NCBI GenBank assembly: GCA_964648105.1
Contig: CAZYMH010000004.1
Coordinates: forward strand, 6,083-70,082
From: an uncultured Candidatus Saccharibacteria bacterium
GTDB taxonomy: Bacteria; Patescibacteriota; Saccharimonadia; Saccharimonadales; 2-12-FULL-41-12
Reading direction: 5' to 3'
DNA: 64,000 nucleotides
The notes under the pieces were generated by a model. That model had not been told where the DNA came from, did no database searches, and saw only the letters and a list, made by a program, of their open reading frames with translations. Positions within the stretch are counted from its first letter, which is position 1. Each line of letters opens with the position of its first letter. The translations under genes were made by a program, and so were the position numbers. Below, in pieces: positions 42,403 to 58,042 of the stretch.

Positions 42403-42444
42403 GTTTAATATCCCTTTTCATTATTTTTAATAATATTTTAACTA

Positions 42445-42453
42445 ATTCTACCA
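42445..42453 (-). promoter_or_regulatory. Candidate extended -10 promoter (TGGTAGAAT) dedicated to fusA
   Basis: Minus strand TGGTAGAAT about 45 nt upstream of the fusA GTG, in the AT-rich gap after the island. Confidence 0.35.
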
Positions 42454-42563
42454 CAAATCACCTTCAATTTAAAATTTAGAGATTTAGATTTTGCAATCTT
42501 GTTTTTTAAAATGCTATTAGGAGTTTGTTACTTTCTTAAATAATTAACTCGTCAGTTCATTAC

Positions 42564-42779
42564 TTAAGAAAGTGCCGGTGTTGTCATTGATGATAAATCA
42601 TCGATGAACGGAACCGGCGGTCCGTTGATAGAAGAGGTTGCGAGGACACTGAAATGTCCGTCAAGCTTCCTGCTCCTACGAGCCTGTAAAGCCATAAAAT
42701 GGCGAACATAGCTCAGTAAAACTTGGGCGAGAACTCGAAGTTCTCTAGCCGAAGTCGCGTGAGGTGTTAGAGGCACCAT
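42564..42779 (-). CDS. Hypothetical small protein (71 aa from the ATG)
   Basis: AAGGGAGAG SD upstream; ORF-track GTG at 42791 is too close to the SD; last gene of the island. Confidence 0.3.
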   Translation of the reverse strand: MVPLTPHATSARELRVLAQVLLSYVRHFMALQARRSRKLDGHFSVLATSSINGPPVPFIDDLSSMTTPALS

Positions 42780-42865
42780 CACTTTTCCCACTCTCCCTTA
42801 TTCCATAGGGCGACACTCACTGTAGCATCATGCTTAGTGACGTCGAATTTTTGTTGCATGTGGGG

Positions 42866-43729
42866 TCACGACCCGTCAGGCACCGAAAGATGCAGATGGT
42901 TGGCATGATTGCTCATGTAAAATGCCCCACATGGGAACTGGCTGTACTGACAGGCGTCATAAATGGTCGGGTTATCAATATCATCGATACCTGTGCCACC
43001 TCGGCCTGTGTGCAGTGAGATCAACTGCCGTGGATAAATCCTCGCTGCCCAAAGAGCCCGAATCGCTTCAGTCACTTTGTCATTGCGATGTTGCAGGTCA
43101 GATCCTACGCCGATCCGAAAACCACCAATTACCGAAATATCAGCCGCTAACCCAGCTGGGTGAGCAGAGATACCTCCTGTAGTGGTCGAAATCGAGTGAG
43201 AGCGAGCCAGACAGCTGAATTCGACATAAGGCTTACTTGCCCCACGTCTCTCTTGGTCGGCAGCGATAACCATCGCTTGCACCCAGATGTTAGGATGAAT
43301 CGATGTACCTCGACCAGGCCCACGGTCGGTGTACGGCCGAGCAACCTGATCAAGAAAATCTTGTCTTGTCCCCCAGCATGCTGCATCGGAGAACGTAACC
43401 CCACCAGAATCGACGTACTTCTGTTTGAGGATTCTGGCTAATCTTGTACTTTCCTGAGCATCATTGCCCCTAGACACTACTTCGAAGGTGGGGTCTTGCT
43501 CCTCGGTCACTTTAGCCACAAGAGGCATCGGCAACAATGAAGCTTTGACTGACTTTGGGTTGTCACCTGCCGAACCCCAAGTGGGTCCGAAAAGTGAGGC
43601 CGCCGAAACAGTCAATACTGCGGTTGTTACTACTCCTTTCAAAATAGCTGGTCGTTTACGGGCCGACTTTTTGGAGCCAGTCGGTTGTTTCTGACTGAAG
43701 GCCTTACTAACTTCGTCTTGTAACGACAT
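42866..43729 (-). CDS. Secreted LAS/M15 (VanY-like) zinc peptidase, putative peptidoglycan hydrolase
   Basis: 287 aa; signal/TM near residue 30; exact S-x-H-x-x-G-x-A-x-D motif (SAHPAGLAAD) and C-terminal H-x-H (NHLHLS). Confidence 0.65.
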   Translation of the reverse strand: MSLQDEVSKAFSQKQPTGSKKSARKRPAILKGVVTTAVLTVSAASLFGPTWGSAGDNPKSVKASLLPMPLVAKVTEEQDPTFEVVSRGNDAQESTRLARILKQKYVDSGGVTFSDAACWGTRQDFLDQVARPYTDRGPGRGTSIHPNIWVQAMVIAADQERRGASKPYVEFSCLARSHSISTTTGGISAHPAGLAADISVIGGFRIGVGSDLQHRNDKVTEAIRALWAARIYPRQLISLHTGRGGTGIDDIDNPTIYDACQYSQFPCGAFYMSNHANHLHLSVPDGS

Positions 43730-44128
43730 CTAGTCACCACCGCGACGAAGTTGTTGGCCTGCCCACTGCCAGATAGTCTGGCTTTCGCCTGACCTCTGAG
43801 CGTTTGAAGTGGTCATTTCTTCGTTAGAGTCCATCTTTTCTCTGGCCCCACGGATACCGTCAATAAGAGCGGCGAGGCCAGAGATAACTTCGGCGGAAGA
43901 AGCTTGGCCGTTACGACTTTTGGTCGTCGCTCCAGTCAGCTTCTCGCCGTAGAACGTCAAGCACTGCCCTGCAGTTTCCAAGACCTCCAGCAACTCGACA
44001 AAAATCATGTCGCTGGCGACCAGGATGTCGGCGTCTTTGGTTGACAGCCCACACTGGTCTTCCAAAGACGCTCTTCGCTCACTCTTTGACATCTGAGTGA
44101 GCATTTGCAAATCTACGCGGTCGGACAT
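43730..44128 (-). CDS. Hypothetical helical cytoplasmic protein (132 aa)
   Basis: The ATG at 44128 has a strong AGGAGGAGGT SD; ORF-track GTG at 44176 is less likely. Confidence 0.45.
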   Translation of the reverse strand: MSDRVDLQMLTQMSKSERRASLEDQCGLSTKDADILVASDMIFVELLEVLETAGQCLTFYGEKLTGATTKSRNGQASSAEVISGLAALIDGIRGAREKMDSNEEMTTSNAQRSGESQTIWQWAGQQLRRGGD

Positions 44129-44200
44129 ACCTCCTCCTACACTAGAGTGGGTGACACCACAAACTTCAGATATCACCCTGATTGGACAACTTGTAGTTTA

Positions 44201-46018
44201 TCAAAGCTTGAATCGATCCGTCGAGCTGACGGTCGAATTCTGGCTTTTTGGCGACTTGAGCTGACTACTCTTGCTGGCGAAGCCCAGGATACCGTAAACA
44301 GCGAAAACGAGTTGCTGTCTCATAATCCAGGCCAAAACCAGCATGCCGAGCAATGCCAGGTACTCCCACTTCAGCTCGAGAGCTGACGAATCTTGAACCG
44401 AATCGTCAACACCGAGATGTGAGTAGCGACGCGACTTCTCACGGTTGTACTCGTCACGCACCTTGGAAGTACAAGACGCGAAGTTCTGCTCGGTCGAAAC
44501 TTTGCAAGACTTGGCAGTTGCCAGAGCCACCAATGACGCAGGCCGCTGAACGAGCGGGTAAAGACCCAGAACGTTCATGTTGGCATAACAATCAGAGCTT
44601 TCGCCCTTACAAACTCGCTTAGCCAGCTTGGCCTGCTGGTGGTTACCTGCCATTACGCTACTCGCGAACTGCTTGGCAGGAGCAGTAAGCTCCTTCTTGC
44701 CCAGCTTGGCTACATAAGTAGCCTGCGACCAACTGGCCTGCTGCCTGATGGCCTTGACATACAAGCCGTACAAAGCCGCAGGAGTAGTCTTCTGGTCGTG
44801 CGTGAACCGACTGTTCTTCTCGGGCAATCGGTCATGCATCTTATCCCGCCAGCTGTCGAACAACGAGCTTGCCGTAAGGCAAACTGCTTCATTGTTCTTA
44901 TTGCTCTGGGGATTGCACTTTGCAAATGCAGGCCCATAGACCTTGACTGTCTGGTTAAACCAACGGTCTTGGTCCTTAAGTCGTTCTGCTGCAAGCTTCA
45001 GCTCAATATGTGAGATGAAAAAGTGCGACAGACGACTGTTGGTACGACCATCGGCGTAGCGTTCGGCAGTAGCCTTCAGCTTGTTCAGCTTCGGGTAGCC
45101 GTTTGGCACGCCTTTGACATCCTTGTCGATGATCACATCCAGCCGCCGCTGAGTCTCGAGCAGCGGGTTCTGACGCAGGAACGCTAGCATATACTGCCTA
45201 GCAATGTTCCTGCGGCTAGCGGGTGAGCTTTTGCTCATCAGATCTGCTGTTGCACCGCGGACCTTACGAGCTTCGGCAAAACAACCTTTCCAGCCGAACT
45301 CACGCCGATGTTCCCAGCAGAGTTCCGCAAGGAACGCCTGCTTCTCGCCAGTCCGTGCCAACACGCGGTCAGCCCGAGCTAGTCTGGCGGGAGCCATCAA
45401 AATGTTCTTGAAGACAACTTCCAGTCTGCTCATCCGACCTTGGGACGAACCAACCTTACGGCAACTCGTGACACCCTTACGGATGACCACAAATTGGCCA
45501 TTGCGAATCCTGACGTACTTTTCGCCGCGGTTTCCCGTGACGATCGTGCCAGAGATGTTCGGTCCAACTTTGCCCGTCCGACTGGTGTCAAATGTGTTCG
45601 GTCCCGAATGAGTCCAAACGTAACCTGACAGAGCCGTGCAGCTGACACGATTTCCCTTCTGACCCATCGACATCGCCACAAGCTGGTTGACCTGCGATGT
45701 TGATGTCGTCGGGTAGTACTCTGCTTCTACCACAGGGGTAGCTTGCTTAGCCGTCGTCTGGGCTACTCTCCGAGGAGAAGTGTAGCTAGTCGTCGGCAAC
45801 GGCACGTAAGCAGAGGTTCGCGGCGTTTGCACAGGCGGTGTCGGCGATGGCACATGGGCGTCCGAGGCCAGCTGGATATTCAACCCCTTGGGGGTGTTTC
45901 CATCTGCCCGCTCGACGGCCACGTAGTCAGCGTAGCTGTCTTGCCCAACTGCGGTCATCGGTGCCAGCAGAGCTGACACTGCGATGACTCCAAAGAGCCA
46001 TTTGGTTCGGTTGTGCAT
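44201..46018 (-). CDS. Large secreted orphan (605 aa) with C-terminal TM anchor
   Basis: Signal peptide ...LLAPMTAVGQD, Pro/Thr-rich linker, many Cys, hydrophobic WEYLALLGMLVLAWI near the C-terminus. Confidence 0.55.
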   Translation of the reverse strand: MHNRTKWLFGVIAVSALLAPMTAVGQDSYADYVAVERADGNTPKGLNIQLASDAHVPSPTPPVQTPRTSAYVPLPTTSYTSPRRVAQTTAKQATPVVEAEYYPTTSTSQVNQLVAMSMGQKGNRVSCTALSGYVWTHSGPNTFDTSRTGKVGPNISGTIVTGNRGEKYVRIRNGQFVVIRKGVTSCRKVGSSQGRMSRLEVVFKNILMAPARLARADRVLARTGEKQAFLAELCWEHRREFGWKGCFAEARKVRGATADLMSKSSPASRRNIARQYMLAFLRQNPLLETQRRLDVIIDKDVKGVPNGYPKLNKLKATAERYADGRTNSRLSHFFISHIELKLAAERLKDQDRWFNQTVKVYGPAFAKCNPQSNKNNEAVCLTASSLFDSWRDKMHDRLPEKNSRFTHDQKTTPAALYGLYVKAIRQQASWSQATYVAKLGKKELTAPAKQFASSVMAGNHQQAKLAKRVCKGESSDCYANMNVLGLYPLVQRPASLVALATAKSCKVSTEQNFASCTSKVRDEYNREKSRRYSHLGVDDSVQDSSALELKWEYLALLGMLVLAWIMRQQLVFAVYGILGFASKSSQLKSPKSQNSTVSSTDRFKL

Positions 46019-46030
46019 GATATCTCCATT

Positions 46031-46747
46031 TTAGGAGTCTTTGACAGGGATAAACTTGATTTGGGTTGACCCAATGCCCAGCATGACTAGTCCCAGAATG
46101 AATACTGCAGTCCACGAAAATTCCGTAGACTCGTTGCTCGCCCGGGACTGATTCTTCATGCCATCCTTGAGAGGATAGCCTACAACAATCGGAGCTTCCT
46201 CAACTACCTCAGAGGATTTTCCAGGTTGAGTAAATAGCCCTCGACTAGGGTCACCACCCAACTCTGAGTAATAATCTGAGACATTACCGACCCAATGGCT
46301 GTTAAGTCCGCCTGGATCGTTAGATGCTCCAACAGGACACCATTTGGCACCGACTTCGGCTACTGACTGTCGGGTCCGATAGTTCTCACCCAATAGTCTT
46401 GCCGCCGCTCGGATGCCATGTTCCCATGAAGGACCAAGCGTCCATCCAGGACCAATCCCCCATGCGTTATGCTTGGAGATGTTTTGAGCATCTCCTGTGG
46501 TGCCAAAATGACTTTCAGCACCAGAAATAGCTACCAGTAACCGTGGGTCAACGCCATACTCATTTCCCCATCGGACAAAGTCTTTGCCGTGTCCAACAAG
46601 TGGTGAATTTGACACTTTCCCTTCGATATACTGATCGATTCTTTCAGCAAGGCCATTGCTGGATGTTGCAGCCACTGGCACCATCATGCCTCCGAGGAGG
46701 ACTATTATGGCCGCCAGTAGGCACTTCATCTTGCTAAAATACACCAT
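46031..46747 (-). CDS. SLT/lysozyme-like peptidoglycan glycosidase (VirB1-like role?) with C-terminal TM
   Basis: 238 aa; signal peptide; YGVDPRLLVAISGAESHFGT...HNAWGIG resembles the lytic transglycosylase E-S catalytic block; AAGGAGGTGA SD. Confidence 0.5.
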   Translation of the reverse strand: MVYFSKMKCLLAAIIVLLGGMMVPVAATSSNGLAERIDQYIEGKVSNSPLVGHGKDFVRWGNEYGVDPRLLVAISGAESHFGTTGDAQNISKHNAWGIGPGWTLGPSWEHGIRAAARLLGENYRTRQSVAEVGAKWCPVGASNDPGGLNSHWVGNVSDYYSELGGDPSRGLFTQPGKSSEVVEEAPIVVGYPLKDGMKNQSRASNESTEFSWTAVFILGLVMLGIGSTQIKFIPVKDS

Positions 46748-46788
46748 TCACCTCCTTAGGGAGTGAAAGTTGTCTTAGTCGGCGTAAG

Positions 46789-46977
46789 TTACCTCTTTGA
46801 CCACAGCTTGGTGAATGCCAGCAGCACCATTGCTACGACCAATAAGGTAACGAACAGTATAAGATGGGCCAATACAGTTATCGCTATGCCGATGGCACAG
46901 ACGCTTGCGATGGCCCCTACCGCCAGTTGCCTAACACCTTGCGGTGCAGGCACAGGACGATGATGATTACCAGCCAT
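46789..46977 (-). CDS. Small 2-TM membrane protein (62 aa)
   Basis: The ATG at 46977 overlaps the upstream gene stop (ATGGCTGGTAA); two hydrophobic helices. Confidence 0.4.
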   Translation of the reverse strand: MAGNHHRPVPAPQGVRQLAVGAIASVCAIGIAITVLAHLILFVTLLVVAMVLLAFTKLWSKR

Positions 46978-48028
46978 TGCCAATTACCACCTTGTCTGTC
47001 GTGGTCGAAGTCGGAACGCTTTTGAGCTTCAGCCCATCGACGTAACTGACCTCAATCCGAACATCAAAACCCTTTGCTCTCAAGTCCTCGATCTGCTGCT
47101 TGTTAGCAGCTTTGATCAATTTCTCGATTTGTGGACGGGTGTTGTCCTGAGCCTGCTGCAATGCTGACCGCCCGCCAAACGACTTATCATCGCTAGGGGT
47201 GGTAGCTAACTTATAGGCACGGTCAAGAGCCAGCGATTGTGCTGAGTTGGCTTTGCCGTCATCGGGGCCAGCGATTAAGCTAGCCATCCGATACAGGATA
47301 CCGCCTCCAGAACTGCCATGAAAATGCGTGGCTTTCTTACCACACCTCTCCCAGGCTGCTCCGAAGTCGTCGGCCATGACACTATCAGACAGATGGTACT
47401 GCTGCCCCTCAATGTAGAGAGATGCGTACCGCCTGATGATGTTGGGCCTCGGAACTTGAACCGAAATCACGTAGACTGGCTTTTTGCCAGGCACAGTCGG
47501 TCCATATTCACGATCACCCTTGATGCTTTGTTCGATGTACCACGACAGGCTGTCGATTCCGACAGGGAACCTGCCGAGGGCATCGAGCTTGATCTTGCTC
47601 GAGTTGAACAAAAAACCGAGCAGGAACTTCTTGGGGATATCGATTTCCCCGCCATTTACTACATTTGGCACGCAGAAAACGATGTCGCTAGTAATGTAAG
47701 TGTCCTGGGGAGACACAAACACAACTGGTGGTCCTGTGGACTCCAGTTTATGGGCGAAAATGCTTTCTAGCCGATTGATTACAACCCATGACAGGCTGAA
47801 CACGACCAGAACCACTGCGATAAGAGCCGAAGCTCTGACCCATGGGTGGTACTTCTGCAATGTGATGTTATCTCTCTTGCCGATGCGATGCATCAACCAG
47901 AGAAAGCCGATCAACCCGATTACGGATATCCCGACTGGAATCATCAGTAACCATAGTGGCTGATCGAAGTCGATCTTCAGTGGACCAAGCTGTATCAAAA
48001 CAGCTGGTTGGCCAAAGAAAGGCGACAT
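46967..48028 (-). CDS. Membrane-anchored orphan (353 aa)
   Basis: AGGAGGTGA SD; two N-terminal TM helices followed by a soluble domain of about 260 aa. Confidence 0.55.
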   Translation of the reverse strand: MSPFFGQPAVLIQLGPLKIDFDQPLWLLMIPVGISVIGLIGFLWLMHRIGKRDNITLQKYHPWVRASALIAVVLVVFSLSWVVINRLESIFAHKLESTGPPVVFVSPQDTYITSDIVFCVPNVVNGGEIDIPKKFLLGFLFNSSKIKLDALGRFPVGIDSLSWYIEQSIKGDREYGPTVPGKKPVYVISVQVPRPNIIRRYASLYIEGQQYHLSDSVMADDFGAAWERCGKKATHFHGSSGGGILYRMASLIAGPDDGKANSAQSLALDRAYKLATTPSDDKSFGGRSALQQAQDNTRPQIEKLIKAANKQQIEDLRAKGFDVRIEVSYVDGLKLKSVPTSTTTDKVVIGNGW

Positions 48029-48426
48029 TTTCTCTCACCTCCTATTCATCAATGTTTGTATTTGTTATAGTACACTGCTACTTTATACTCAAAATTTATA
48101 TAATTTGACTCTAAAACAGATAGATGGACAAATCTTGATTCAAATACAAAGCAGCAGCGTACTACAAAATTTACGCTTATTTATAATTGTTAAATAGCGG
48201 ATTTACGGAGAATAAGTCCACCTATCGTTCAAGATGAGCAGATTCATCGAACGCAAATCATATAATATAATTACTATACTTTAGGTGTTTTGTCAATGTT
48301 TATAACATATAATTGGCATACTTACTTTTAAGTATTATGGTTATACAAAGCATCATAAATTGAACATTTCGTTGTTGTAAATTAAGTAATATACAACTAT
48401 ATTTGCGAGGAGTAAAATATATTATT

Positions 48427-49353
48427 ATGACAGAGCATGAGGGCAATAATGAAAGGCCGCGAAATGATGATTATAGCGACCATAAAAATGACGGCTTTTT
48501 GTCACCACCTTACAGCGATGTACATCGTCGACCGAGTGTGATAATTGAAGGATCCGATGATAATTTTTATGAGCGAAACAAACGCACTTTATTAATCGGA
48601 GCTTCAGCTGTAATAGGCATTTTGGCAGTCGGTGGGATTATCAAGTCATGTACCGATGACGAGCCAAAACCCAAAACTCCATCCAAAACAGAATCTAGTC
48701 TATCGGGGCGGACATTCTCTGAACTACTTAATGCCAATTCTAAGAATAACTCTGGTCAGAGGGTAGTTTTGGCTAATTTTAATATCGCTCGAGTTTTAAA
48801 CGATGATCTAGCAGCTGGCAATAACAGCGTCGAGACATTAAGTGTCAGTACCACCGCTTGCACTACTGGCAGTGGCTCAACTGTTCGACCAATCAAATCA
48901 AATGTCTCGACGATTATTTTTCGGAATTCCGAGAGCCGTAATCCATTTTTACCTGTTATTCTAAACGATGAACATATATCAGCCACCGAAAAATACCGAA
49001 CTAACTTCCGCGAGGCAACCAAAGATAGTGGTTATATGCACCGCGACCCAACCCGAATGTCGAAGAAAAATATCAAATTCATTAAATCAGCCGTTAACGA
49101 CCAACTGTGTCCTACAGGCACAACAGCCATTGACCCGCAAATATCGTCTAGACGCTTACTCATCGACGATGCCGCCTTCGAAGGAAGGCAGCTCTACGAC
49201 ACCAATAATCGTAACCCGTTAAGAGGTGTAAGTAACTTCTTTGAACGTATCGGCAGTGGTGGGATTATCTTAATTTTGGTAGGTTTAGGGGCAGTGGCAT
49301 TACTATCTGACGGGGATTTTCGTAGTCGCTTTGGCCGCCGAAAAAACGACTAA
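48427..49353 (+). CDS. Orphan membrane protein, the only plus-strand gene in the island
   Basis: ORF opens at TTG 48403; ATG at 48427 follows a GAGGAG SD; TM helices near residues 55-75 and at the C-terminus. Confidence 0.5.
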   Translation: MTEHEGNNERPRNDDYSDHKNDGFLSPPYSDVHRRPSVIIEGSDDNFYERNKRTLLIGASAVIGILAVGGIIKSCTDDEPKPKTPSKTESSLSGRTFSELLNANSKNNSGQRVVLANFNIARVLNDDLAAGNNSVETLSVSTTACTTGSGSTVRPIKSNVSTIIFRNSESRNPFLPVILNDEHISATEKYRTNFREATKDSGYMHRDPTRMSKKNIKFIKSAVNDQLCPTGTTAIDPQISSRRLLIDDAAFEGRQLYDTNNRNPLRGVSNFFERIGSGGIILILVGLGAVALLSDGDFRSRFGRRKND

Positions 49354-49823: not shown

Positions 49824-50942
49824 TTAACCACCCACTCCAGGCTGAACAGTGACATGCACATGGTCATAGTGACCTTCGGTCACACCGTAACCATGGGTAT
49901 ACGGTCGCCAACCTGTTCCTAATTGACAAGCGGCTGAATTGCCCTCGTTAAGACGAGTAACATTCCAGATTTTACCTTGCCAAATAAGATACCTAACTCC
50001 TACTTTGCTAGCGTTACTGGCAAGGAAACAAGCTATTTGCCAACCGAGAGCTTGCTCTGCCTTTGACGGAGAAATACCAATGCCATCGCTAATCGTGATA
50101 TCGAGTGCGAGGCCTAATGTATGATCCTGAGGTGTACCTGCAGGTCGAACACTATAACCACCAATTTCACGAATACACGGTGAAGTGTGAAGCTTCTCAC
50201 ATCCCCAGTTGGCAAAAACAAATCTTTGCAGGTTCTCGGCCCTTGGCACTAGTCCTGTTTTGGGATTTCGAGGTCCTTCGCCTGGATCTGTTAATGTGCC
50301 AGATACAGCGATATCTGCACAACCCATGTCTGTAACTACGCCATTGTCATAGCGTTCCAATACGCTTTTGGCGTTCTGGATGCGTTTTGGATACGAGGCT
50401 GTGTCACCTGACACTTCGTAAATTTTCTCAAACACCACTGTGGCTTCATCAATCGTGTTTGATCGCCGAACTGCAACAAGAGCCGATTTCCAGCCACCGA
50501 AGAGTTCGGACTTCATGAAATCGAGCTGCAACTCGATATCCGTCCATGGTTTACCCTGATAATCATGTGCTTTCAGGGCAGTTTGTCGACTTCCAAGCCA
50601 CTGAGCAATACCAACTGCTCCTGAGGTAGGATTTGGGTTGTCGGTTTTCAGAGGGTCTCCACCACTCTCATGGATGAAATTACCAACAATTGCGGCCGCC
50701 TGAAAGGGCTTGAGATCAAACTCAGGCTGCATAAGATAGTTGTATGTCTTCTGGGTATTATTATCGCCAGTAACTGCTGTGGCACATCCACCAGCCGACA
50801 TAGTGCTACTGCCGATCATTAAGACAAACATAACTATCGATACCACACCTACTGACATCAGAATGACTGGAAAACCAATCACTCCAATTAGCCACCCCAC
50901 TATGCCTGCTTTTAGTGCTTCACTTCCATTTTTATGGGACAT
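49824..50942 (-). CDS. Membrane-anchored bifunctional cell-wall hydrolase: phage-tail-lysozyme-like domain plus LAS metallopeptidase-like domain
   Basis: 372 aa; AAAIVGNFIHESGG...GAVGIAQWLGSR...QLDFMKSEL (lysozyme family); C-terminal HTLGLALD (H-x6-D) and HYDHVHV (H-x-H). Confidence 0.7.
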   Translation of the reverse strand: MSHKNGSEALKAGIVGWLIGVIGFPVILMSVGVVSIVMFVLMIGSSTMSAGGCATAVTGDNNTQKTYNYLMQPEFDLKPFQAAAIVGNFIHESGGDPLKTDNPNPTSGAVGIAQWLGSRQTALKAHDYQGKPWTDIELQLDFMKSELFGGWKSALVAVRRSNTIDEATVVFEKIYEVSGDTASYPKRIQNAKSVLERYDNGVVTDMGCADIAVSGTLTDPGEGPRNPKTGLVPRAENLQRFVFANWGCEKLHTSPCIREIGGYSVRPAGTPQDHTLGLALDITISDGIGISPSKAEQALGWQIACFLASNASKVGVRYLIWQGKIWNVTRLNEGNSAACQLGTGWRPYTHGYGVTEGHYDHVHVTVQPGVGG

Positions 50943-50954
50943 GATATCTCAACC

Positions 50955-52307
50955 CTAGGAAGTTGACGCCAGTTCACTTGATGAAAGTCCGCTTTTGCCC
51001 TTAACGAGGTGGCTTGTTTCGAGCAGCGGAATCTCCCACGGCATGGCTACATATCGCACCTCGAGTGCGGGTATGTTGCCAGTAGTGAACTTATACAGAG
51101 CATGGCCTTGAGGAAGTTTTACAATCCTTTCAATTTCATTATCTGTATACCCAAACAGATGTGAACTAGCTTCAAGTTCAGCTCGGTTTTGCCGATAACT
51201 GATAACCAATGAGGTGTCACTGGCGATGTCTTCGATCTGAGATGTAGCAGATCGAATAAGGTTTTGCCAATGATGAACCACCATTCGGTTACCAAAACCT
51301 TTGCTCCGTCCGAGCTTATAGGCCCGCCTCACCGAACTGACAAATCCGCTGTATGCTGCAAGGTCCCACGATTCATCATGGATAACGTGATGAAACCTGT
51401 TATCTGAAGATGATTTTGCATTTTTTTCGAGAGTAAAGAAGTTGATGAGAGTGGTCATTACAACCGCTTTCTCGCCATCAAGTCCCTCACAGTCTAGAAC
51501 CAGCAACGGCACTGCATCAAAAAGCCCTGGCGTCGTTGGTTTGTGAAACATTCCAGCAAGATTACCTTTTTCAGATAGACGTTCGAGCGTCAATCTGAGA
51601 TTTGCACTAAGCTTGTTGATATCATCGATATTTCCGACACTCAAATCTTCGACTGTACTAGCAGAAGGGTTTCGGAGTTTTTCGATCAAGCTCGGCAAAG
51701 TCGGAATACCTATTATCCCAGGGGAATTGTGACATTCGATAATCGAGTTCCACAAGAGAGTATTCTCCAGTGGTGTAAGCCCCTGAGTGAAGTGTTTTCC
51801 TGCGGTTACAATCAATGCAGTCAGTAGCTCCAATTGAGCATCTAGTCCCATGACAGGGTCCAAAGGATTAATGAAGTACTGAGCATTGTCACTGAAGTTA
51901 AGGACTTTTGCACCGTCGATGTATCCCGCTAGCACACGGTACTCACCCTTTCGATCAGTGACCAGATAGTTGCGTGAAAAAAGCAAAGTATCACGCAAAA
52001 TTCTTATTTTTTCTCCAGATGACTTGCGATAGCCTGTTTGTCCAAAGACAATCGAGTTTAGCGAAAACGCCGTTTCAGGATCAGCCTGATGGGCGGTGTA
52101 CTCACAAAACTCAAAGTTACCCGCTATTCCACCGAGACCAGCAATACCCAGAGGTACGCCAATCAATTTTTGCCCAGTTTTAGGATTGATAAATCCGTGT
52201 TCCAGACACAGCGGATTGACAGGAGCTAGGTCTTCGGACATTTCACGAAAAGTCGGCAAAGTATCACCGCTAACAATTCGTGCAAGATGGCTTTTATCAA
52301 TAGCCAA
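50955..52307 (-). CDS. VirB4-type (AAA_10/DUF87-like) secretion ATPase domain, non-canonical Walker A
   Basis: 450 aa; TTG start after GGGAGGTGAGAAG; GQTGYRKS (P-loop with R in place of G), VTDRKGEY, VIHDESWDL (DExW Walker B), HHWQ. Confidence 0.6.
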   Translation of the reverse strand: MAIDKSHLARIVSGDTLPTFREMSEDLAPVNPLCLEHGFINPKTGQKLIGVPLGIAGLGGIAGNFEFCEYTAHQADPETAFSLNSIVFGQTGYRKSSGEKIRILRDTLLFSRNYLVTDRKGEYRVLAGYIDGAKVLNFSDNAQYFINPLDPVMGLDAQLELLTALIVTAGKHFTQGLTPLENTLLWNSIIECHNSPGIIGIPTLPSLIEKLRNPSASTVEDLSVGNIDDINKLSANLRLTLERLSEKGNLAGMFHKPTTPGLFDAVPLLVLDCEGLDGEKAVVMTTLINFFTLEKNAKSSSDNRFHHVIHDESWDLAAYSGFVSSVRRAYKLGRSKGFGNRMVVHHWQNLIRSATSQIEDIASDTSLVISYRQNRAELEASSHLFGYTDNEIERIVKLPQGHALYKFTTGNIPALEVRYVAMPWEIPLLETSHLVKGKSGLSSSELASTS

Positions 52308-52383
52308 TTCTTCTCACCTCCCTCGTTTTTAGGTTAAGAGGTCGATTTTATCTTTAGTTTATGTTGAGTAAACTTTGATAAAA

Positions 52384-53958
52384 TCATTTGAAAACTCCCT
52401 TGAAGTTCAAAGCTGCGAGGCCACGTCCAAGGGGCAACACAACAGATACACCTTCGTACTGCCTAAGCGTAAGACCTTGCACACTGCAGTTATTCCTAGC
52501 TGCGGTCGAGCGAAGAATCTCAGCATTGGCAGTAACTTCTTCGACGGAACTGCCTTGGAGTGAAACATACACTCTCATCCGAAGTGATTCAGAACGGCTC
52601 GATGCCAACCGAATGGTTTTTTGTTTCGCCAATTCTGCCTCACGTTGCAGATCTGCATCCACCGCTGAACCAGCTAGCTGCTTGTCGGCGATGATAGAGC
52701 TGGTCGTATTACGATTGAACCTCGAGATACGACTGGTCGATGACCGTGAAACTGGCTGATATACAGCAGTCACAGTCAAAGGAATTACTTTTGCAGACTG
52801 CCCTTCTTCATTACTGAGGTTCATCAACCACAAAAATTCTGTGGGCGTCAATCCGTACTCGGAGAGACTTTCGATGAAAAAGCTCATATGAACCGTTTCA
52901 CCGAGCCAGGCATGATTCGCTTCAAAACCGCAGACTGTCGGTAAACCGAGCTTTTCATCAATTTGCTTGTCAGATTGCTCGAGAATACCAGTCTTACGCA
53001 TCTCCCTAACCAAAGGCAGTTTTGAAACTTGATCTAGTAACAGACCGATGTCCATAACTGACTCATTGTAAGTGTGGGCATCAACTTGACTTATGCCAAA
53101 TGGATTGTTAGCCAGACTATCGGTCAGGCCTACTTCATCGGCAAGTTGACCAACGAGATTGTACAAAAACTCGCCAGTCGTAATTTTTGTCTTTTTGCGA
53201 GCGTGCCTAATTCGAGGATCATCTTTTTTGACAGTAAACCGTAGAGACACCACTCTCTCAGACGACAGTTCCATTATCTTTTGCTCGTAAGCATCGATAA
53301 ATTGGTGGACTTTGTCTGATTTATTATTCACTAGATCATTAACCTTAAGCATTGTTTCTCGTTCTGAACGAAGATTCAATGCTTCTCCTGGCAAAACTTG
53401 CACCTGCCAAGAGAATCGGTAAAATTCATGCTTCTTTACAACATCGAGCAACTTCGAAAATGCTTCTGTACGGTATTCTCGTTCTTGCGAGCTGGCATTG
53501 AAGAGAGAGCTGATTTTGACATACACAACGAACGTGTAAGTCTCATCTCGCTTATCATCATAAATGCACAGCTTCTGTCCCGAAATCTCAAATGGAACAA
53601 GTTCTAACTTGCCCAAACGCTTAGCGAATTCACGCTTAGCACGTTTAGTTAGTTCGAAGTTTTCTCCTCGTTCGACTCGTTTGTCGAAAAACTCATTCTG
53701 ACCGAGGTCAAAATTCGCCCTTCGATAGAGGATTGCGAGGAGCGGTTTGCCGTCTCTGGAAACTGGGACATAAACTAGCAGTCCCCAAAAAGCAGCTGCC
53801 AGAAACGTAATGCCTAGCCATATTCCAAATGGTACAATCTGCAAAAGCACCAAAAGGATTACAACCAGCACAACTGCAAAGATCGTGGAATGATCGAGCC
53901 TTAGCGACCCAACAATTCGAATTCCACGCTCTTTTTCAATCGGATGTCGCTCAGACAC
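52384..53958 (-). CDS. TM-hairpin protein with large cytoplasmic domain; candidate VirB3 / VirB4 N-terminal-domain equivalent
   Basis: 524 aa; GTG start after an identical GGGAGGTGAGAAG; two TM helices at residues about 25-65; sits directly upstream of the ATPase domain gene. Confidence 0.4.
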   Translation of the reverse strand: MSERHPIEKERGIRIVGSLRLDHSTIFAVVLVVILLVLLQIVPFGIWLGITFLAAAFWGLLVYVPVSRDGKPLLAILYRRANFDLGQNEFFDKRVERGENFELTKRAKREFAKRLGKLELVPFEISGQKLCIYDDKRDETYTFVVYVKISSLFNASSQEREYRTEAFSKLLDVVKKHEFYRFSWQVQVLPGEALNLRSERETMLKVNDLVNNKSDKVHQFIDAYEQKIMELSSERVVSLRFTVKKDDPRIRHARKKTKITTGEFLYNLVGQLADEVGLTDSLANNPFGISQVDAHTYNESVMDIGLLLDQVSKLPLVREMRKTGILEQSDKQIDEKLGLPTVCGFEANHAWLGETVHMSFFIESLSEYGLTPTEFLWLMNLSNEEGQSAKVIPLTVTAVYQPVSRSSTSRISRFNRNTTSSIIADKQLAGSAVDADLQREAELAKQKTIRLASSRSESLRMRVYVSLQGSSVEEVTANAEILRSTAARNNCSVQGLTLRQYEGVSVVLPLGRGLAALNFKGVFK

Positions 53959-54017
53959 TTCTCACCTCCCAACATTAGTTGAAGGCATCCATGCCTTTAC
54001 CCTTGAACGGTTAATCA

Positions 54018-55142
54018 TTAACTCGACCTGAACTTAGTGTAATAGGCACGAGCAATCACGGCTCGCTTGACTGGTTCAACCTTGAAATCAGCACCACTGA
54101 TTTTCTTGATTGCCCAAATACCGATGATCAAAGGCATCACAGTTGTGGCACATAGAATGATCATTGTGGTAAATGCATCATTGGCTTCTAATGTCATAGC
54201 TAGTCCCAACTGTAGTACAAACAGCAATATTGCAGGAAATGCGATCCAAGCTCCGATGGTCAAGAAGGCCTTTTTAGCCCTGTCCCATGATTCTTCGCCG
54301 ATGCTATGAGCTAACGCGAATAGAGCAGCAAGGATCAGTAATGGTATAAACATATAACGAAATACCATTACAAACAACGTTGCACCAGACAGTACTGTTC
54401 CAATTACAAAAATTGTGAACAGTACCGCTACTACGCCTAATTGTCCAGCAATAATTTGGTTGAGGTAGCCCTCAACGTTTTTCATAACATCGCCCAATTG
54501 AACTCCCATTACATCAGCGAGTTCAGGTACGAGTTTTTTGTCTACCAATGTCACCAGCCAAGAGGCTGCCGTCAGCATCATTCCTCCTGTGAGAGCAATA
54601 AACACTCCCATTTTGAAGAATGTGGAGAAGTGGATAGCAAGATCCGCTTCTTTTGCTCCTTTTACAAGCCGATACATAAAGGCTATGTACGCCCAAATGT
54701 AAGCAAGCCAAAGAATTTGCTGATAGGCCACAGAGAACCATGCAGCATTAAGGTTCGGTGATGTTGTTCGTGTGATGAACTTGATTTCCATCTTCAAGCC
54801 CCAAATTACTCCCATACCAAAGAATTTAGCTACTTCACGTAGCATTGGCTCAACGGTATGACTAACTACTTCATCTTTTATTTTCCCAATCGCCTTGCCA
54901 GGTATCTGTGACGGATTTGGCACACCCGGAATGGCACCAATTACATTATTGGCTCCAGCTATCGGATTAATGATCCCCCCACAGACGTTGGAGGCGGTTT
55001 GGTTTGGAATGACATCACAAGGTGTCGGAATCCCAAGGATATCTGCTCCAGCTTTGTCTGGTTTTGCCATTTGCCAGCTCATAAATCCGAACAAGCAAAC
55101 AAGCATCACCAAACTGCTAGAGAGCCAACGAGTTTTAGTCAT
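54018..55142 (-). CDS. Polytopic membrane protein, VirB6/TrbL-like
   Basis: 374 aa; signal-like N-terminus, periplasmic segment, then at least 6 TM helices; start overlaps the upstream stop. Confidence 0.45.
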   Translation of the reverse strand: MTKTRWLSSSLVMLVCLFGFMSWQMAKPDKAGADILGIPTPCDVIPNQTASNVCGGIINPIAGANNVIGAIPGVPNPSQIPGKAIGKIKDEVVSHTVEPMLREVAKFFGMGVIWGLKMEIKFITRTTSPNLNAAWFSVAYQQILWLAYIWAYIAFMYRLVKGAKEADLAIHFSTFFKMGVFIALTGGMMLTAASWLVTLVDKKLVPELADVMGVQLGDVMKNVEGYLNQIIAGQLGVVAVLFTIFVIGTVLSGATLFVMVFRYMFIPLLILAALFALAHSIGEESWDRAKKAFLTIGAWIAFPAILLFVLQLGLAMTLEANDAFTTMIILCATTVMPLIIGIWAIKKISGADFKVEPVKRAVIARAYYTKFRSS

Positions 55143-55854
55143 AGGTCTTGTACCTCTGATTCTCGAGGACTAGCTTGTACTTCGCCAGAATCTGAGTAAA
55201 ACTTTGGCCAGATTCTGTGAAGCTTGGTACTTCACCCTTTAGTGGACGAAGTTGCTTGTCATAACGCCACTTTCCATCTTGCCAAACCATTCTCAAGATC
55301 TGGATCGATGGAACATCCTGCTGAAAATAACGCTGATTTTTCTTGGTTATTACGGTTGTGATGCCGTAAACACCAACCACAGCACTTTTTCCTGCTTCAA
55401 AACTTTTGACTTTGTACTGAAGTGCTTGGAAGTCATACCTGCCTTTTTGCTGAAAATCAGCTAGAGACGAGTACCCTAAGCTTTTTGCCATTGCATCTCC
55501 TCCTACTGCAGGAACCTGCTTACCATCAGCTTCATAGCCAGAGTAAAGCTTACGAAGTTGACTGGCAGTTTCCTGAGTAGCAACTTCATCCACCTGATTA
55601 CGAAAGTCCGCTTCAGGTGAAAGAAAAGCCGATGTCAACACCGCCACCGTATTGCCAGCCGAACGACGTGCATCATCAACACTCGATGATGAAGGATCGA
55701 CAGGCGATGGTGGGTTACTGACAGTATTTCCACTCGCATCTTTGGTAATAGTTTGCGTTCGCGTAACCGTATGGTCAATATTCGCAAGCACAACTGCAAT
55801 TACCATCAATAAAGCGAATGGCACTACAAACCATCTCAGCTTTCTGAAATTCAT
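55135..55854 (-). CDS. Bitopic membrane protein, possible VirB8/TcpC-like scaffold
   Basis: 239 aa; single N-terminal TM, Ser/Pro linker, soluble domain of about 150 aa. Call rests on size, topology and context only. Confidence 0.3.
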   Translation of the reverse strand: MNFRKLRWFVVPFALLMVIAVVLANIDHTVTRTQTITKDASGNTVSNPPSPVDPSSSSVDDARRSAGNTVAVLTSAFLSPEADFRNQVDEVATQETASQLRKLYSGYEADGKQVPAVGGDAMAKSLGYSSLADFQQKGRYDFQALQYKVKSFEAGKSAVVGVYGITTVITKKNQRYFQQDVPSIQILRMVWQDGKWRYDKQLRPLKGEVPSFTESGQSFTQILAKYKLVLENQRYKTYD

Positions 55855-55917
55855 TTTTCTCTCCTATGGTTTAGTCGCCTAGGACAAAGATACCTAGGCG
55901 ACTGACACCAAATTGAC

Positions 55918-56241
55918 TCACGGCCTGAAAAGCTGGCTGAGTCGTGTCGTCCAACCCTGAAGGTCGGACAAAATGATTATGGCAACGATGGCTGCCACAA
56001 TCATGGCAATTGCTTGTCCCGAGCTTCGACCGTTACCGATCGCCGAAATCCACTTAAGCAAGCCAATTCCGACAAAGATCAGGGCAATGACGATGAAAAT
56101 CCAGACTGCCCATTGCACCCAGTTCTGCCCAATTGGTCCAAGCACAGGCGGTGCTTTGGGGTTGGTGTTAATTGCCAAGCTGGTAGCTGGCAGCACCAAA
56201 ATCATCACCAAACTGCTCAGCCACATTTTGAGGTTTCTCAT
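55918..56241 (-). CDS. VirB2/TrbC-like small membrane protein (pilin-like)
   Basis: 107 aa; signal peptide ...PATSLA, then two hydrophobic helices separated by a short loop; AAAGGAGGAG SD. Confidence 0.4.
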   Translation of the reverse strand: MRNLKMWLSSLVMILVLPATSLAINTNPKAPPVLGPIGQNWVQWAVWIFIVIALIFVGIGLLKWISAIGNGRSSGQAIAMIVAAIVAIIILSDLQGWTTRLSQLFRP

Positions 56242-56265
56242 GTCTCCTCCTTTTAGTGGAGATAC

Positions 56266-57738
56266 TTACGAGGGCGACGGCATAATAATGCCCACGTTCT
56301 TGATCAGCCAGTGTCGCTTAGGAACCTTGACCTTTTGCAACAGAGCTGCTTGTTCAAATACTGCAACGATCACTACTAGATAGTCGAAATATGTTGCTCG
56401 AGCCATCTGAGTGTAATCGAGCCCTTCAACTGTGTCATACAGATGATCATCTTCCTGCACCCCAAATACTCTTGTCTTAGAGAACAGCGAAGGATTTCCG
56501 CCTGACAGCTTAATTCCACTAGAGAGCCGAGAAACAAACTCCTCGTTGCCTTCATCATGGTCATAAGCATTCATCACTACGACTGCATTCTCAAGTTTTT
56601 CACTGACAGGAATCAAGTCGCCTTCCAGTGCTTGACCTTCTCCTGCCACTGCTTGTCGAATGTTTTTTTGCATGTGCATATAGTACGCCAGTGTTGCTCC
56701 TGCCGACTCCAAAGTTTGCTTCATAAGTCGGTTTGCAGCAACCACCACCACGTCAGACTGCCTCATCGCAACCGAAGTCACGGTGTAGGCATATGCATCA
56801 TCATTCCCGGTATCGGAAATGATGATTTCTGCGTTCTCTCGAAGATGCGAGTGGACTTTCAACCATCTTACCTTCGAGAAATTGCTCTTGTCGTTAGATA
56901 TGGTGTCTTCAGAGATAACACGCAGTCCGTGTTTGGTTACTGCAACCATCTTAAAAAGCTCGTGAAAGCTAATCTCTTCATCTTGCAATTTGGTGGCATA
57001 CTGACGCAAAGTTAGGGTCTTACCACGTACACCTGCCAAATTTCCTGCGGTTGCAGTCTGAGTTGAGGTAGACGATGGGAGCAGCACAACAATTCGACGA
57101 GTGATTTCTGCCAAGATTTCACCCATGATAACTGCCATGACTGACTTCGCCGAGCTACCTTTTTGGTTGCCTACCCAAATGTTCGGGTGGACACCAAGGT
57201 TGACGATATCGCGAATCCTGCCTTCAAGCAGCTTAATCCGCTGCTCGAAAATATCGCTCTCTTGCTCCTTGTTGATACTCGGAACAATATCGGGTCGCCC
57301 AAACTTTCGATTTACCATGTAGCGAACCTTCGAGACTCCTCGATCGGGCAAAACCGTCTCGATGGGAGTTTCGAAGTCTGGTACCTCGCTCCGAGTATAA
57401 ACTCGATAGATACCAAACGTTACTACGGCAATCATTAGCATGATTGCAACTGCACTGATGATCGTGCTAGCACTCAGGGCAATCACGGCCAAGAGTACAA
57501 TAGTTACACCGAACAAGCATGCCCAAGCCACAAAGCCAGGCTTCTTGAATGCATGTGTAAACCTGTTGGAGACTTCTGCTCGATTGAACTTTAGTCTCGA
57601 CCCAGAGTTGACTTCCGACCAATCACGAACACGAACTTGTACTTCGTGCTGGCTGACTTTCTCCTGATGGGGTTGATTAGAAATTTCGTTGTCTTCTTTA
57701 TGTTGACCACGAAATTTTCCAAAATCAACAGGACTCAT
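56266..57738 (-). CDS. Membrane-anchored ParA/MinD-superfamily (CpaE/TadZ-like) P-loop protein
   Basis: 490 aa; two TM helices at residues about 65-115; deviant Walker A NQKGSSAKS; hhhhD box IIISDTGND. Confidence 0.5.
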   Translation of the reverse strand: MSPVDFGKFRGQHKEDNEISNQPHQEKVSQHEVQVRVRDWSEVNSGSRLKFNRAEVSNRFTHAFKKPGFVAWACLFGVTIVLLAVIALSASTIISAVAIMLMIAVVTFGIYRVYTRSEVPDFETPIETVLPDRGVSKVRYMVNRKFGRPDIVPSINKEQESDIFEQRIKLLEGRIRDIVNLGVHPNIWVGNQKGSSAKSVMAVIMGEILAEITRRIVVLLPSSTSTQTATAGNLAGVRGKTLTLRQYATKLQDEEISFHELFKMVAVTKHGLRVISEDTISNDKSNFSKVRWLKVHSHLRENAEIIISDTGNDDAYAYTVTSVAMRQSDVVVVAANRLMKQTLESAGATLAYYMHMQKNIRQAVAGEGQALEGDLIPVSEKLENAVVVMNAYDHDEGNEEFVSRLSSGIKLSGGNPSLFSKTRVFGVQEDDHLYDTVEGLDYTQMARATYFDYLVVIVAVFEQAALLQKVKVPKRHWLIKNVGIIMPSPS

Positions 57739-58042
57739 TTGCTCACCCCCTATAATATTTTTATTTTGTACCAGTTTGTTAAGGTGCGGGGTTCACCTTT
57801 GGCCAACGCCAAAGAGCCGAAGATTCCTCCGGTTTATAAGCTCCTTTCTCGCCATGAAGTTTATTAACCGAAAGAATGTATCATAAAACTGAGCCACACC
57901 TGTGACTACTAAAAGAGTACAATATTTTTTGAACTTCGTAAATATTGATTTTCGTATATATATTCCGTAGTATGAAACAAGTATTTTTACAATTTAAAAA
58001 ATAAGTTGCCTAAATATTTTAATTGTTAAAAATTAATGATTT

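Follow-up and report, generated by a model that had tools for sequence, protein, structure and literature searches.

Gene Content of the Interval between rpsG and fusA

The stretch of DNA considered here, referred to as the window, comprises 64,000 nucleotides of contig CAZYMH010000004.1 (GCA_964648105.1) from an uncultured Candidatus Saccharibacteria bacterium, and the system in question lies within its str operon. According to Pfam matches, the order of genes on the minus strand is rpoB (partial), rpoC, rpsL, rpsG, an interval of 15.6 kb, and fusA. Seven consecutive genes of this interval (positions 49824-57738; core genes 1 to 7 in Table 1) probably encode an apparatus resembling a type IV secretion system (T4SS), with a VirB4 ATPase that is split over two genes and with nearest outside relatives on plasmids of Actinomycetota.

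An original prediction, made from the letters of the sequence and a list of open reading frames (ORFs), had described the interval as a single 15-kb T4SS-like locus of 15 ORFs, of which 14 are co-oriented with the ribosomal genes. Its placement between rpsG and fusA was correct, as both flanking genes are identified by Pfam, and a hydropathy scan gives the same membrane topologies as had been proposed. As to the count, 13 solid ORFs of 107-605 amino acids (aa) are present, 12 on the minus strand and one, encoding a 316-aa membrane protein, on the plus strand; the remaining two (75 and 34 aa) are short and without support. The notion of one locus had to be given up, since comparison with a contig designated L012 divides the block into a core and a 5.9-kb insertion. 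(L001 to L024 are labels of this analysis for contigs that carry relatives; L012 is the closest relative found.) The block is composite, consisting of a T4SS-like core and a separate insertion, because the inserted segment is missing from L012 while the core and the fusA side are collinear.

Within the seven core genes, intergenic distances range from -8 to 76 nt, and gaps of 304 nt after rpsG and of 470 nt after core gene 7 are found on either side. Promoter-like matches were not above shuffled expectation and terminator-like matches were only modestly above shuffled background, so the boundaries of the operon are drawn from gene spacing only. Neither a tRNA nor any other Rfam family was found in or adjoining the block.

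Table 1. Positions of the genes and other features discussed, in the order of transcription of the str operon (TM, transmembrane segment).
Feature	Position	Strand	Remarks
rpsL	58522-58935	-	Ribosom_S12_S23, E 9e-37 (Pfam)
rpsG	58043-58522	-	Ribosomal_S7, E 3.5e-55 (Pfam)
34-aa ORF	57793-57897		short, without support; at one end of the block as originally predicted
Core gene 1, 490 aa	56266-57738	-	membrane-anchored ParA/MinD-like P-loop protein (predicted); TM hairpin at about residues 66-115
Core gene 2, 107 aa	55918-56241	-	small pilin-like protein; signal peptide and two TM helices
Core gene 3, 239 aa	55135-55854	-	bitopic protein; N-terminal TM helix and extracytoplasmic domain; VirB8 position, homology unproven
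Core gene 4, 374 aa	54018-55142	-	polytopic membrane protein; signal-like N-terminus, at least 5 TM; VirB6 position
Core gene 5, 524 aa	52384-53958	-	N-terminal half of split VirB4 (predicted); TM hairpin at residues 15-67; SCO6880-family related
Core gene 6, 450 aa	50955-52307	-	C-terminal ATPase half of split VirB4 (predicted); Walker A 89-96, Walker B HDESW 310-314
Core gene 7, 372 aa	49824-50942	-	membrane-anchored bifunctional peptidoglycan hydrolase (predicted); lysozyme-like and zinc L,D-endopeptidase-like domains
316-aa membrane protein	48403-49353	+	two TM; conserved only in closest relative L012
Insertion, 5.9 kb	42458-48372	-	strain-specific, five ORFs; absent from L012, where both flanks align
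353-aa ORF	46967-48028	-	within insertion; 2 TM
238-aa ORF	46031-46747	-	within insertion; secreted and anchored; SLT_2/glucosaminidase matches below Pfam thresholds
605-aa ORF	44201-46018	-	within insertion; signal peptide and C-terminal anchor; orphan
148-aa ORF	43730-44176	-	within insertion
287-aa ORF	42866-43729	-	within insertion; H-x6-D/H-x-H motif only, as in zinc peptidases
75-aa ORF	42564-42791		short, without support; at the other end of the block as originally predicted
Promoter-like site	42445-42473	-	TTTAAA, 17 nt, TG-n-TAGAAT (extended -10); ~40 nt upstream of fusA
fusA	40321-42402	-	five EF-G domains (Pfam)
734-aa fusion	37916-40120	+	trehalose-6-phosphate synthase/phosphatase
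tuf	36533-37717
340-aa ORF	35395-36417	-	no Pfam match
324-aa ORF	32986-33960	+	no Pfam match
GT5-GH57-GH15 cluster	8611-12952	+	glycogen/starch cluster

A VirB4 Protein Split over Two Genes

The product of core gene 6 has few close homologs (17 by a word-index search). Its family profile finds only 4AG5/4AG6, the C-terminal domain of VirB4, in the PDB (E 9.6e-11), and the alignment is nearly full length, running from 55 to 424 of the profile against 13-387 of 392. In addition, residues 82-213 align to positions 415-554 of the 752 of the CD1110 VirB4 family of NCBIfam (E 1e-6). The DRKGEY and DESW motifs that had been pointed out can both be read in the 450-aa protein, and its description as a VirB4-type ATPase domain agrees with this sole PDB match. 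The Walker A motif takes the form G-x4-R-K-S, with an arginine in place of the second glycine in most members of the family from Saccharibacteria.

Immediately upstream, the 524-aa product of core gene 5 matches the NCBIfam model SCO6880_fam (E 8.4e-9, 34.9 bits), as do its orthologs (7/7, best E 4e-15), and aligns to positions 29-456 of the 894 of the Mbov_0397 VirB4 family and to positions 233-363 of the 752 of CD1110 VirB4 (NCBIfam). When its family is compared by hhalign with a protein named as an SCO6880 family protein by PGAP, the match (Prob 96.5, E 1e-9, 345 columns) runs through a shared C-terminal PxGRGL motif [P(L)GRGL].

Since gene 5 matches N-terminal regions of VirB4 and gene 6 matches the VirB4 C-terminal domain, the two genes are, judging from these alignments, a VirB4 divided between two products, the N-terminal half being membrane-anchored and the ATPase half soluble. 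The VirB4-family ATPase, the one component by which T4SSs of every class are recognized, is represented here by the 450-aa protein together with the adjacent 524-aa half. The arrangement is also that of the SCO6880/Cmd type, in which an SCO6880-family membrane protein is encoded immediately upstream of a VirB4-like ATP-binding protein of ~450-500 aa.

Relationship to Plasmids of Actinomycetota

When 72,556 plasmids were searched by tblastn with the ATPase, 72 records matched, all of them belonging to Actinomycetota (Streptomyces 41, Arthrobacter 6, Rhodococcus 4, and others), at ~25% identity and with E values to 5e-19. Syntenic modules are present on plasmid D03a of Curtobacterium sp. MCBD17_003 (NZ_CP126276) and on plasmids of Nocardia farcinica (NZ_CP086603) and Pseudarthrobacter psychrotolerans (NZ_CP047899). 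Upstream of the ATPase, these plasmids encode a small protein, a protein of 206-244 aa, a polytopic protein, and a protein in the SCO6880 slot, which is named so on the Pseudarthrobacter plasmid; the first gene of the module on the plasmids of Nocardia and Curtobacterium encodes a ParA-like protein. The gene 1 family matches the 436-aa ParA-like protein of Nocardia (hhalign Prob 96.7, E 4e-10) and the 423-aa protein of Curtobacterium (Prob 88.7). In all, homology could be established for four of the six syntenic genes, namely those for the ParA-like, polytopic and SCO6880-like proteins and the ATPase. The resemblance to actinobacterial conjugative elements, which had been proposed from gene set and order, is therefore substantiated by plasmid matches that are all actinobacterial (72/72) and by homology of the syntenic genes.

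An exhaustive search of 1.84 billion representative proteins with a hidden Markov model (HMM) of the ATPase yielded 3,124 matches at E<=1e-3. The top ~43 (E<1e-66) have a low-GC-type amino-acid composition like that of the window's protein. Most matches of the next tier have a fraction of glycine, alanine, arginine and proline (GARP) of 0.33-0.47, as is typical for proteins from high-GC Actinomycetota. A single cluster that was checked is named Actinomycetota; the taxonomy of most metagenomic homologs was inferred from composition. In a midpoint-rooted neighbor-joining (NJ) tree, the window ATPase falls in a clade of 35 low-GC-type sequences that includes no high-GC member.

A separate observation concerns some of the split-VirB4 ATPase homologs from Actinomycetota (cluster P0044, 895 aa, and its members), which contain a LAGLIDADG intein inside the ATPase.

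Conservation and Genomic Context

The full seven-gene order is found in at least eight other contigs (L001, L002, L004, L005, L006, L007, L016 and L024), where the genes encode a ParA-like protein, a small protein, proteins of ~250, ~370, ~525 and ~450 aa, and a hydrolase of ~390 aa. L013 carries genes 2-7 and the end of gene 1, and L012 carries the last three genes. Among these contigs, L001/L010 and L002/L009 belong to metagenome-assembled genomes (MAGs) named 'Candidatus Saccharibacteria bacterium'. The core proteins of the at least eight contigs are only ~20-80% identical to those of the window, and the module occurs in different surroundings: preceded by holB and a TPR gene, preceded by nusA, or close to genes for LexA and Wzy. 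Only in the window and its nearest relative does it lie upstream of fusA, the rpsG side being outside that relative's contigs.

Divergence of the core stands in contrast to that of its neighbor. Compared with L012/L013, the core proteins of the window have 60-81% identity, as against 98% for fusA; in L012 the ATPase is 75% identical. Nonsynonymous divergence (dN) of the core genes is 0.13-0.32 and synonymous divergence (dS) is saturated, with a dN/dS of 0.05-0.19 where it is computable. All core ORFs are intact, with no frameshifts or truncations seen. The core genes are under purifying selection, yet they evolve fast. Their GC content is 0.44-0.51 (0.44-0.47 in six of the seven), which is near that of the flanking genes.

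The alignment-based genome scans used one strict pattern, which matched 2 genomes and 3 metagenome contigs, and because of this single strict pattern the prevalence figures are lower bounds. By this narrow scan, the ATPase family is present in 2 of 185,579 GTDB species representatives. A single-protein pattern scan of species-representative genomes found nothing, and assemblies carrying the module were not found in the supplementary tables of a survey of T4SSs in Patescibacteria (PMC12102498).

The window also shares a GT5-GH57-GH15 glycogen/starch cluster with L002 (17291-21359, minus strand), at 50-81% protein identity. This cluster is ~5-7 kb from the core in L002 and L004 (in L004 only GH15 was seen) and ~37 kb from it in the window; the module has therefore been rearranged or relocated.

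The ParA-like Protein and the Wall Hydrolase

Core gene 1 encodes a protein with NQKGSSAKS at the deviant Walker A motif, which reads KGGxxK[ST] in ParA/MinD ATPases, and with the sequence DTGNDD; its ortholog in L001 has the canonical NSKGGSGKTT. When the family profile is compared with the PDB, the top matches are all ParA, Soj, MipZ or FleN proteins (best E 7e-4, P-loop region only), and weak matches to AAA_31 and CbiA are given by Pfam. These features place the protein among the ParA/MinD (SIMIBI) ATPases, and the original assignment of the first gene as ParA-like holds, both by the ParA-type chains at the top of the PDB matches and by the hhalign matches to plasmid ParA-like proteins described above.

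Core gene 7 encodes a protein with an N-terminal anchor, a Phage_lysozyme2 domain at residues 62-197 (E 6.6e-27, Pfam) and a C-terminal domain whose family profile matches PDB entry 9FLH (E 1e-5). The latter is taken as the pneumococcal zinc L,D-endopeptidase VldE, from the PF26571:VldE tag on gene 7 (PMC11667670), and the motifs H-x6-D and H-x-H can be recognized in the sequence. Its earlier description as a lysozyme joined to a LAS peptidase is consistent with these matches to a lysozyme and a zinc peptidase. The protein is a functional analogue of VirB1.

Among the relatives, the hydrolase appears to have exchanged domains, according to alignment by eye. For instance, the Phage_lysozyme2 domain is apparently replaced by an SLT-like glycosidase in L001 (11350-12504) and L006 (10239-11426), and in L007 (11348-12544) the C-terminal peptidase domain is apparently a different one. 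The plan of an anchor followed by two domains is retained despite these swaps.

The Remaining Membrane Components

The other three core genes were originally labelled VirB2-, VirB8/TcpC- and VirB6/TrbL-like. A small ORF occupies the slot of gene 2 in every locus, and two of the eight aligned sequences of this family give weak matches to pilins (TraA pilin, E 3.6e-4; PF18895 T4SS_pilin, E 4.7e-3). The Curtobacterium plasmid gene in the same slot matches PF18895 above the gathering score (E 6.6e-8); comparison of the gene 2 family with this pilin gene by hhalign was not significant. Between gene 1 and gene 3, the window and the relatives examined have a single small pilin-like ORF and no array of VirB2-like pilins.

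Gene 3 is conserved in all loci and has no match in Pfam, NCBIfam or the PDB. It matches the syntenic 243-aa protein of Curtobacterium over 24 columns that contain a W-DG-W motif (E 5.6e-4, Prob 30). The labels of genes 2 and 3 come down to size, topology and gene position, together with weak matches.

Gene 4, which contains a Cys/Pro-rich exported segment, is homologous to a 505-aa protein of the Curtobacterium plasmid (hhalign Prob 96.7, E 4e-10, 212 columns, including the motif TSPxLxAxWF), encoded just upstream of the SCO6880-slot gene and itself without a VirB6/TrbL match; matches to the Nocardia and Pseudarthrobacter counterparts are weaker. None of seven orthologs in the gene 4 family matches the TrbL/VirB6 models of Pfam, and the family profiles do not match any PDB chain, including the solved VirB6 chains. 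The VirB6/TrbL label of this protein is accordingly unproven. A word-index search returned a single homolog of the gene 4 product, and AlphaFold2 models built from almost no alignment were unusable, with a predicted local distance difference test (pLDDT) score of 40 for gene 3 (single-sequence) and 39 for gene 4.

Mobility and Coupling Genes

Relaxase, recombinase and integrase domains are absent from the scanned ORFs of the block (Pfam and NCBIfam; Pfam only for the 605-, 148- and 287-aa ORFs). No domain of a coupling protein of the VirD4/TcpA type was detected in the block ORFs, and tblastn of a coupling-protein-like gene from L002 against the 64-kb window found nothing. With neither a relaxase nor an integrase in it, and with no coupling protein in the window, the locus is probably not self-transmissible.

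In L002 (12945-15569, minus strand) and L004 (12017-14659, minus strand), coupling-protein-like genes lie directly after the module, on the strand opposite to it. Their products, of 874-880 aa, contain DUF8128, DUF87 and TrwB_AAD_bind, and have no BLAST similarity to actinobacterial coupling proteins. In their neighborhood, a faint HNH match is seen in L002 and a ParE/Phd toxin-antitoxin pair in L004.

The Insertion and Other Features of the str Operon

L012 aligns with the window over 52268-48373 and over 42457-40318, and ~20 nt separates the two segments. The site of the insertion corresponds in L012 to a 131-bp divergent spacer between a 310-aa opposite-strand gene and fusA. In the window, the five ORFs of the insertion have a GC content of 0.50-0.55 and a third-position GC content (GC3) of up to 0.63, as compared with 0.43-0.45 and 0.33-0.38 in the housekeeping flanks fusA, rpsG, rpsL and rpoC. 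Among 5.8 billion proteins, the 605-aa protein has itself alone as a homolog, and comparison of the insert with plasmid, phage and viral sequences gave no match at the protein or the DNA level. Terminal repeats were searched for in 42300-48600 only, and none, whether direct or inverted, was found there; neither an integrase in the insert nor an adjoining tRNA was found. The insert is also present in L016, which comes from another sample of the same organism.

The original prediction had placed these trailing orphans, along with two further peptidoglycan hydrolases, in the same locus as the T4SS-like genes. They belong instead to a separate, strain-specific insertion, and the hydrolase matches are below threshold or confined to motifs. 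A paralogous relationship between the 287-aa ORF and the peptidase domain of core gene 7 was considered and rejected as unproven, since the motifs alone align (pairwise E 0.17, hhalign Prob 6). The insertion is probably a later, independent and recent acquisition of orphan envelope proteins, and it is not demonstrably part of the machine.

Between the core and the insertion lies the opposite-strand gene, whose 316-aa product has no family match in Pfam or NCBIfam and is 69% identical to that of the 310-aa gene of L012 (dN/dS 0.10). In L012 this gene diverges from fusA, with 131 bp from start to start. Of the matches in the scan, the promoter-like site upstream of fusA is the only one whose -10 hexamer is preceded by TG, and L012 shows conservation of this stretch. 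This extended -10 site hints that fusA may be transcribed independently of rpsL-rpsG.

The str operon of the window is interrupted a second time. A trehalose-6-phosphate synthase/phosphatase fusion, whose domains were annotated on the aligned gene of L012, lies between fusA and tuf, and L012 has this interruption too. Two ORFs of 324 and 340 aa lie between tuf and a run of ribosomal-protein genes and mark another spot with lineage-specific genes. The position of the module in the str operon, together with the orphan insertion beside it, shows that foreign DNA can enter even a highly conserved operon of a reduced genome.

Interpretation of the Seven-Gene Core

Based on its gene products, the core is interpreted, with a probability of roughly 0.7, as a chromosomal seven-gene operon for a minimal monoderm T4SS-like (mating-pair-formation) apparatus of the kind found on Actinomycetota plasmids, in domesticated form. 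Because it is rare, has actinobacterial nearest relatives and a single pilin-like gene, and begins with a ParA-like gene, the module looks like a rarer, second, actinobacterial-type T4SS lineage rather than the phylum-wide system. It was probably acquired by a sublineage of Saccharibacteria from Actinomycetota, the phylum of the known hosts.

In such an apparatus, the two VirB4 halves (the SCO6880-like anchored N-terminal half and the 450-aa ATPase) would form a membrane-bound motor, and the 374-aa polytopic, 239-aa bitopic and 107-aa pilin-like proteins could make up a channel, perhaps with a short fibre. Peptidoglycan would be cut locally by the anchored lysozyme and L,D-endopeptidase so that the structure crosses the wall, and the membrane-anchored ParA-like ATPase may position or nucleate assembly. 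The whole would be a domesticated envelope-crossing device at the interface between epibiont and host, serving the transfer of protein or other macromolecules, or attachment. There is precedent for an essential T4SS without a relaxase in Saccharibacteria (PMC10633639; PMC12102498), and our best guess, action at the epibiont-host interface, is drawn by analogy from the canonical T4SS of Saccharibacteria, on which epibiotic growth depends. A more elaborate version can be offered as a tentative proposal. Here, an actinobacterial plasmid machine would have been captured by a lineage of Saccharibacteria and stripped of its DNA-processing parts, and would now act as a second T4SS beside the phylum-wide one, in the delivery or extraction of macromolecules on contact with the host, with its placement after rpsL-rpsG tying expression to growth. 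Delivery or extraction at the site of host contact is suggested because the machine was built for crossing an actinobacterial wall.

Several points weigh against the interpretation as a domesticated, plasmid-type T4SS. The SCO6880_fam score of 35 bits is below the curated cutoff of 60 bits, and the AAA_10 match of the 450-aa protein in Pfam reaches 17 bits against a gathering score of 27.5. With an arginine in the Walker A motif, ATPase activity of this protein is not assured. The VirB6-, VirB8- and VirB2-like assignments are unproven. The ATPase is set apart from the canonical VirB4 of Patescibacteria by indirect evidence, namely the rarity of its family and an actinobacterial-like nearest outgroup, and the evidence for transfer having gone from Actinomycetota to Saccharibacteria is the midpoint-rooted NJ tree together with composition. 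Lastly, given the coupling-protein-like gene in L002 and L004, some copies may even now belong to a transfer system, and the window's genome could encode a coupling protein in another place.

Three other explanations were considered. The module may be an ordinary canonical Patescibacteria T4SS, as in TM7x and Southlakia, in a divergent form and at an unusual chromosomal place. The canonical system also combines TrsD and VirB4 with VirB6- and VirB2-like genes, a lysozyme and peptidase downstream and no relaxase (PMC12102498; PMC10633639), and both systems are related to monoderm (MPF-FATA) systems. This explanation is nevertheless unlikely. Canonical VirB4 is found in ~80% of Patescibacteria assemblies, as opposed to the 2 of 185,579 GTDB representatives matched by the narrow scan, and the window family amounts to only ~35-43 clusters among the 1.84 billion representatives. 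The nearest outside relatives are high-GC actinobacterial sequences, every plasmid match is to Actinomycetota, and one pilin-like gene is present where the canonical cluster has 2-11. Lists of the canonical components do not include a ParA-like gene in first place, and the str operon is a different location from the gene 0006-0019 region of Southlakia.

The module could also be a Cmd-like VirB4/SCO6880 complex that acts within the cell itself, in division, chromosome segregation or development of the envelope, and not on a host, a role that would suit a ParA-like ATPase and a wall hydrolase in division or budding, and for which the VirB4-like, membrane-associated ATPase CmdB (PMC2782261) and the SCO6880-family relationship of the 524-aa protein are parallels. 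Rarity of the module among Saccharibacteria speaks against a core cell-cycle role, however, and the syntenic homologs examined sit on plasmids with coupling proteins and a relaxase. Moreover, core identities of 60-81% next to 98% for fusA are more typical of surface or interaction proteins, and the Cmd proteins were compared by description only; this reading is considered improbable, somewhat more so than a divergent canonical system. More doubtful again is a decaying, functionless remnant of an integrative and conjugative element (ICE) from an actinobacterial host, from which the integrase, relaxase and coupling protein have been lost. An actinobacterial plasmid-type module without mobility genes, in variable chromosomal contexts, with neighbors of the mobile-element kind in L002 and L004 (the coupling-protein-like gene; the faint HNH match in L002 or the ParE/Phd pair in L004) and with a foreign insertion adjoining it in the window, could be such a remnant. 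Decay is difficult to reconcile with seven intact genes in the same order on at least eight other contigs at ~20-80% protein identity, with a dN/dS of 0.05-0.19 despite saturated synonymous divergence and no frameshifts or truncations seen, and with a core GC content largely ameliorated to that of the host genome. Conservation and rarity thus make both the Cmd-like complex and the decaying element the less likely explanations.

Few functions have been shown to be essential for epibiotic life in Saccharibacteria, and those of the T4SS genes are among them. If the module is indeed a second T4SS whose relatives reside on plasmids of the host phylum, it would give a specific example of an epibiont obtaining machinery from the phylum of its hosts, and genomes with and without the module would offer a natural comparison for its role at the cell-cell interface. 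The module further points to a kind of actinobacterial T4SS that has been little studied, in which VirB4 is split, a partner belongs to the SCO6880 family and a ParA-like gene comes first. With the standard models of VirB4, VirB6 and VirB8, scores for this kind are weak or absent, and surveys based on those models are therefore likely to count too few.

Comparison with Known Systems

A T4SS in Saccharibacteria has been reported for TM7x (PMC7427843), and in Southlakia epibionticum the T4SS (SEML1_0006-0019) is essential for epibiotic growth according to transposon sequencing (Tn-seq) (PMC10633639). A survey of 3,035 Patescibacteria genomes assigned 2,425 of 2,474 VirB4 proteins to one clade, which is related to monoderm MPF-FATA systems (PMC12102498). 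This canonical system, whose VirB4 is present in ~80% of Patescibacteria assemblies, consists of TrsD (VirB4-N-like), VirB3, VirB6 and arrays of VirB2-like pilins, is usually without a relaxase and is often near dnaA (PMC12102498); in Southlakia, lysozyme and peptidase genes are just downstream of virB4 (PMC12102498; PMC10633639). In the open-access literature, no paper was found on an actinobacterial-type module in Saccharibacteria or on a T4SS in the str operon. The earlier suggestion that the architecture is essentially uncharacterised does not hold for T4SSs of Saccharibacteria, which are well documented (PMC7427843; PMC10633639; PMC12102498), nor for the SCO6880/Cmd cluster, which has been described in Streptomyces (PMC2782261).

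The module is like the canonical Patescibacteria T4SS in being a monoderm system of an epibiont without a relaxase, in having a VirB4-N-like protein beside VirB4 and small pilin-like proteins, and in the position of lysozyme/peptidase genes just downstream of virB4. On the other hand, the canonical system is nearly phylum-universal, with 2-11 VirB2-like pilins and a location near dnaA in many classes, while the module is rare, begins with a ParA-like gene, includes a single pilin-like one, resides in the str operon, and has its nearest relatives in Actinomycetota.

In Streptomyces coelicolor, the cmdABCDEF genes (SCO4126-4131) and SCO6871-6884 are likewise chromosomal and non-conjugative. Their products include a VirB4-like ATPase of at least ~430 aa that has no TM segments, a membrane protein of the SCO6880 type and other membrane proteins (PMC2782261). 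The cmd cluster, of which CmdB is the VirB4-like ATPase, affects sporulation and chromosome segregation, and SCO6878, SCO6880 and SCO6881 resemble cmdB, cmdC and cmdD (PMC2782261). In contrast to the epibiont, Streptomyces is a free-living actinomycete, and neither a ParA-like gene nor a hydrolase is described in the cluster, which was compared by description only.

The wall hydrolases of Gram-positive conjugation systems (VirB1 analogues) are, like the product of gene 7, membrane-anchored, composed of a glycosidase and a peptidase, and encoded within the T4SS operon (PMC12102498). Those enzymes combine SLT with CHAP or NlpC-P60, whereas gene 7 combines Phage_lysozyme2 with a zinc L,D-endopeptidase of the VldE type.

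The Actinomycetota plasmids have the same gene order as the window and an ATPase of ~450-520 aa. They differ in that a coupling protein is encoded directly after the ATPase or two genes downstream, whereas the 64-kb window has none, and in that a MobF relaxase lies nearby on the Curtobacterium plasmid, in contrast to the window block. On the Nocardia and Pseudarthrobacter plasmids, the peptidoglycan hydrolase is upstream in the cluster and is of the SLT or DD-metalloendopeptidase type, unlike the downstream fusion of a lysozyme with a VldE-like domain in the window. Finally, in place of a plasmid location, the window module is found on the chromosome of a low-GC, reduced-genome Saccharibacterium.

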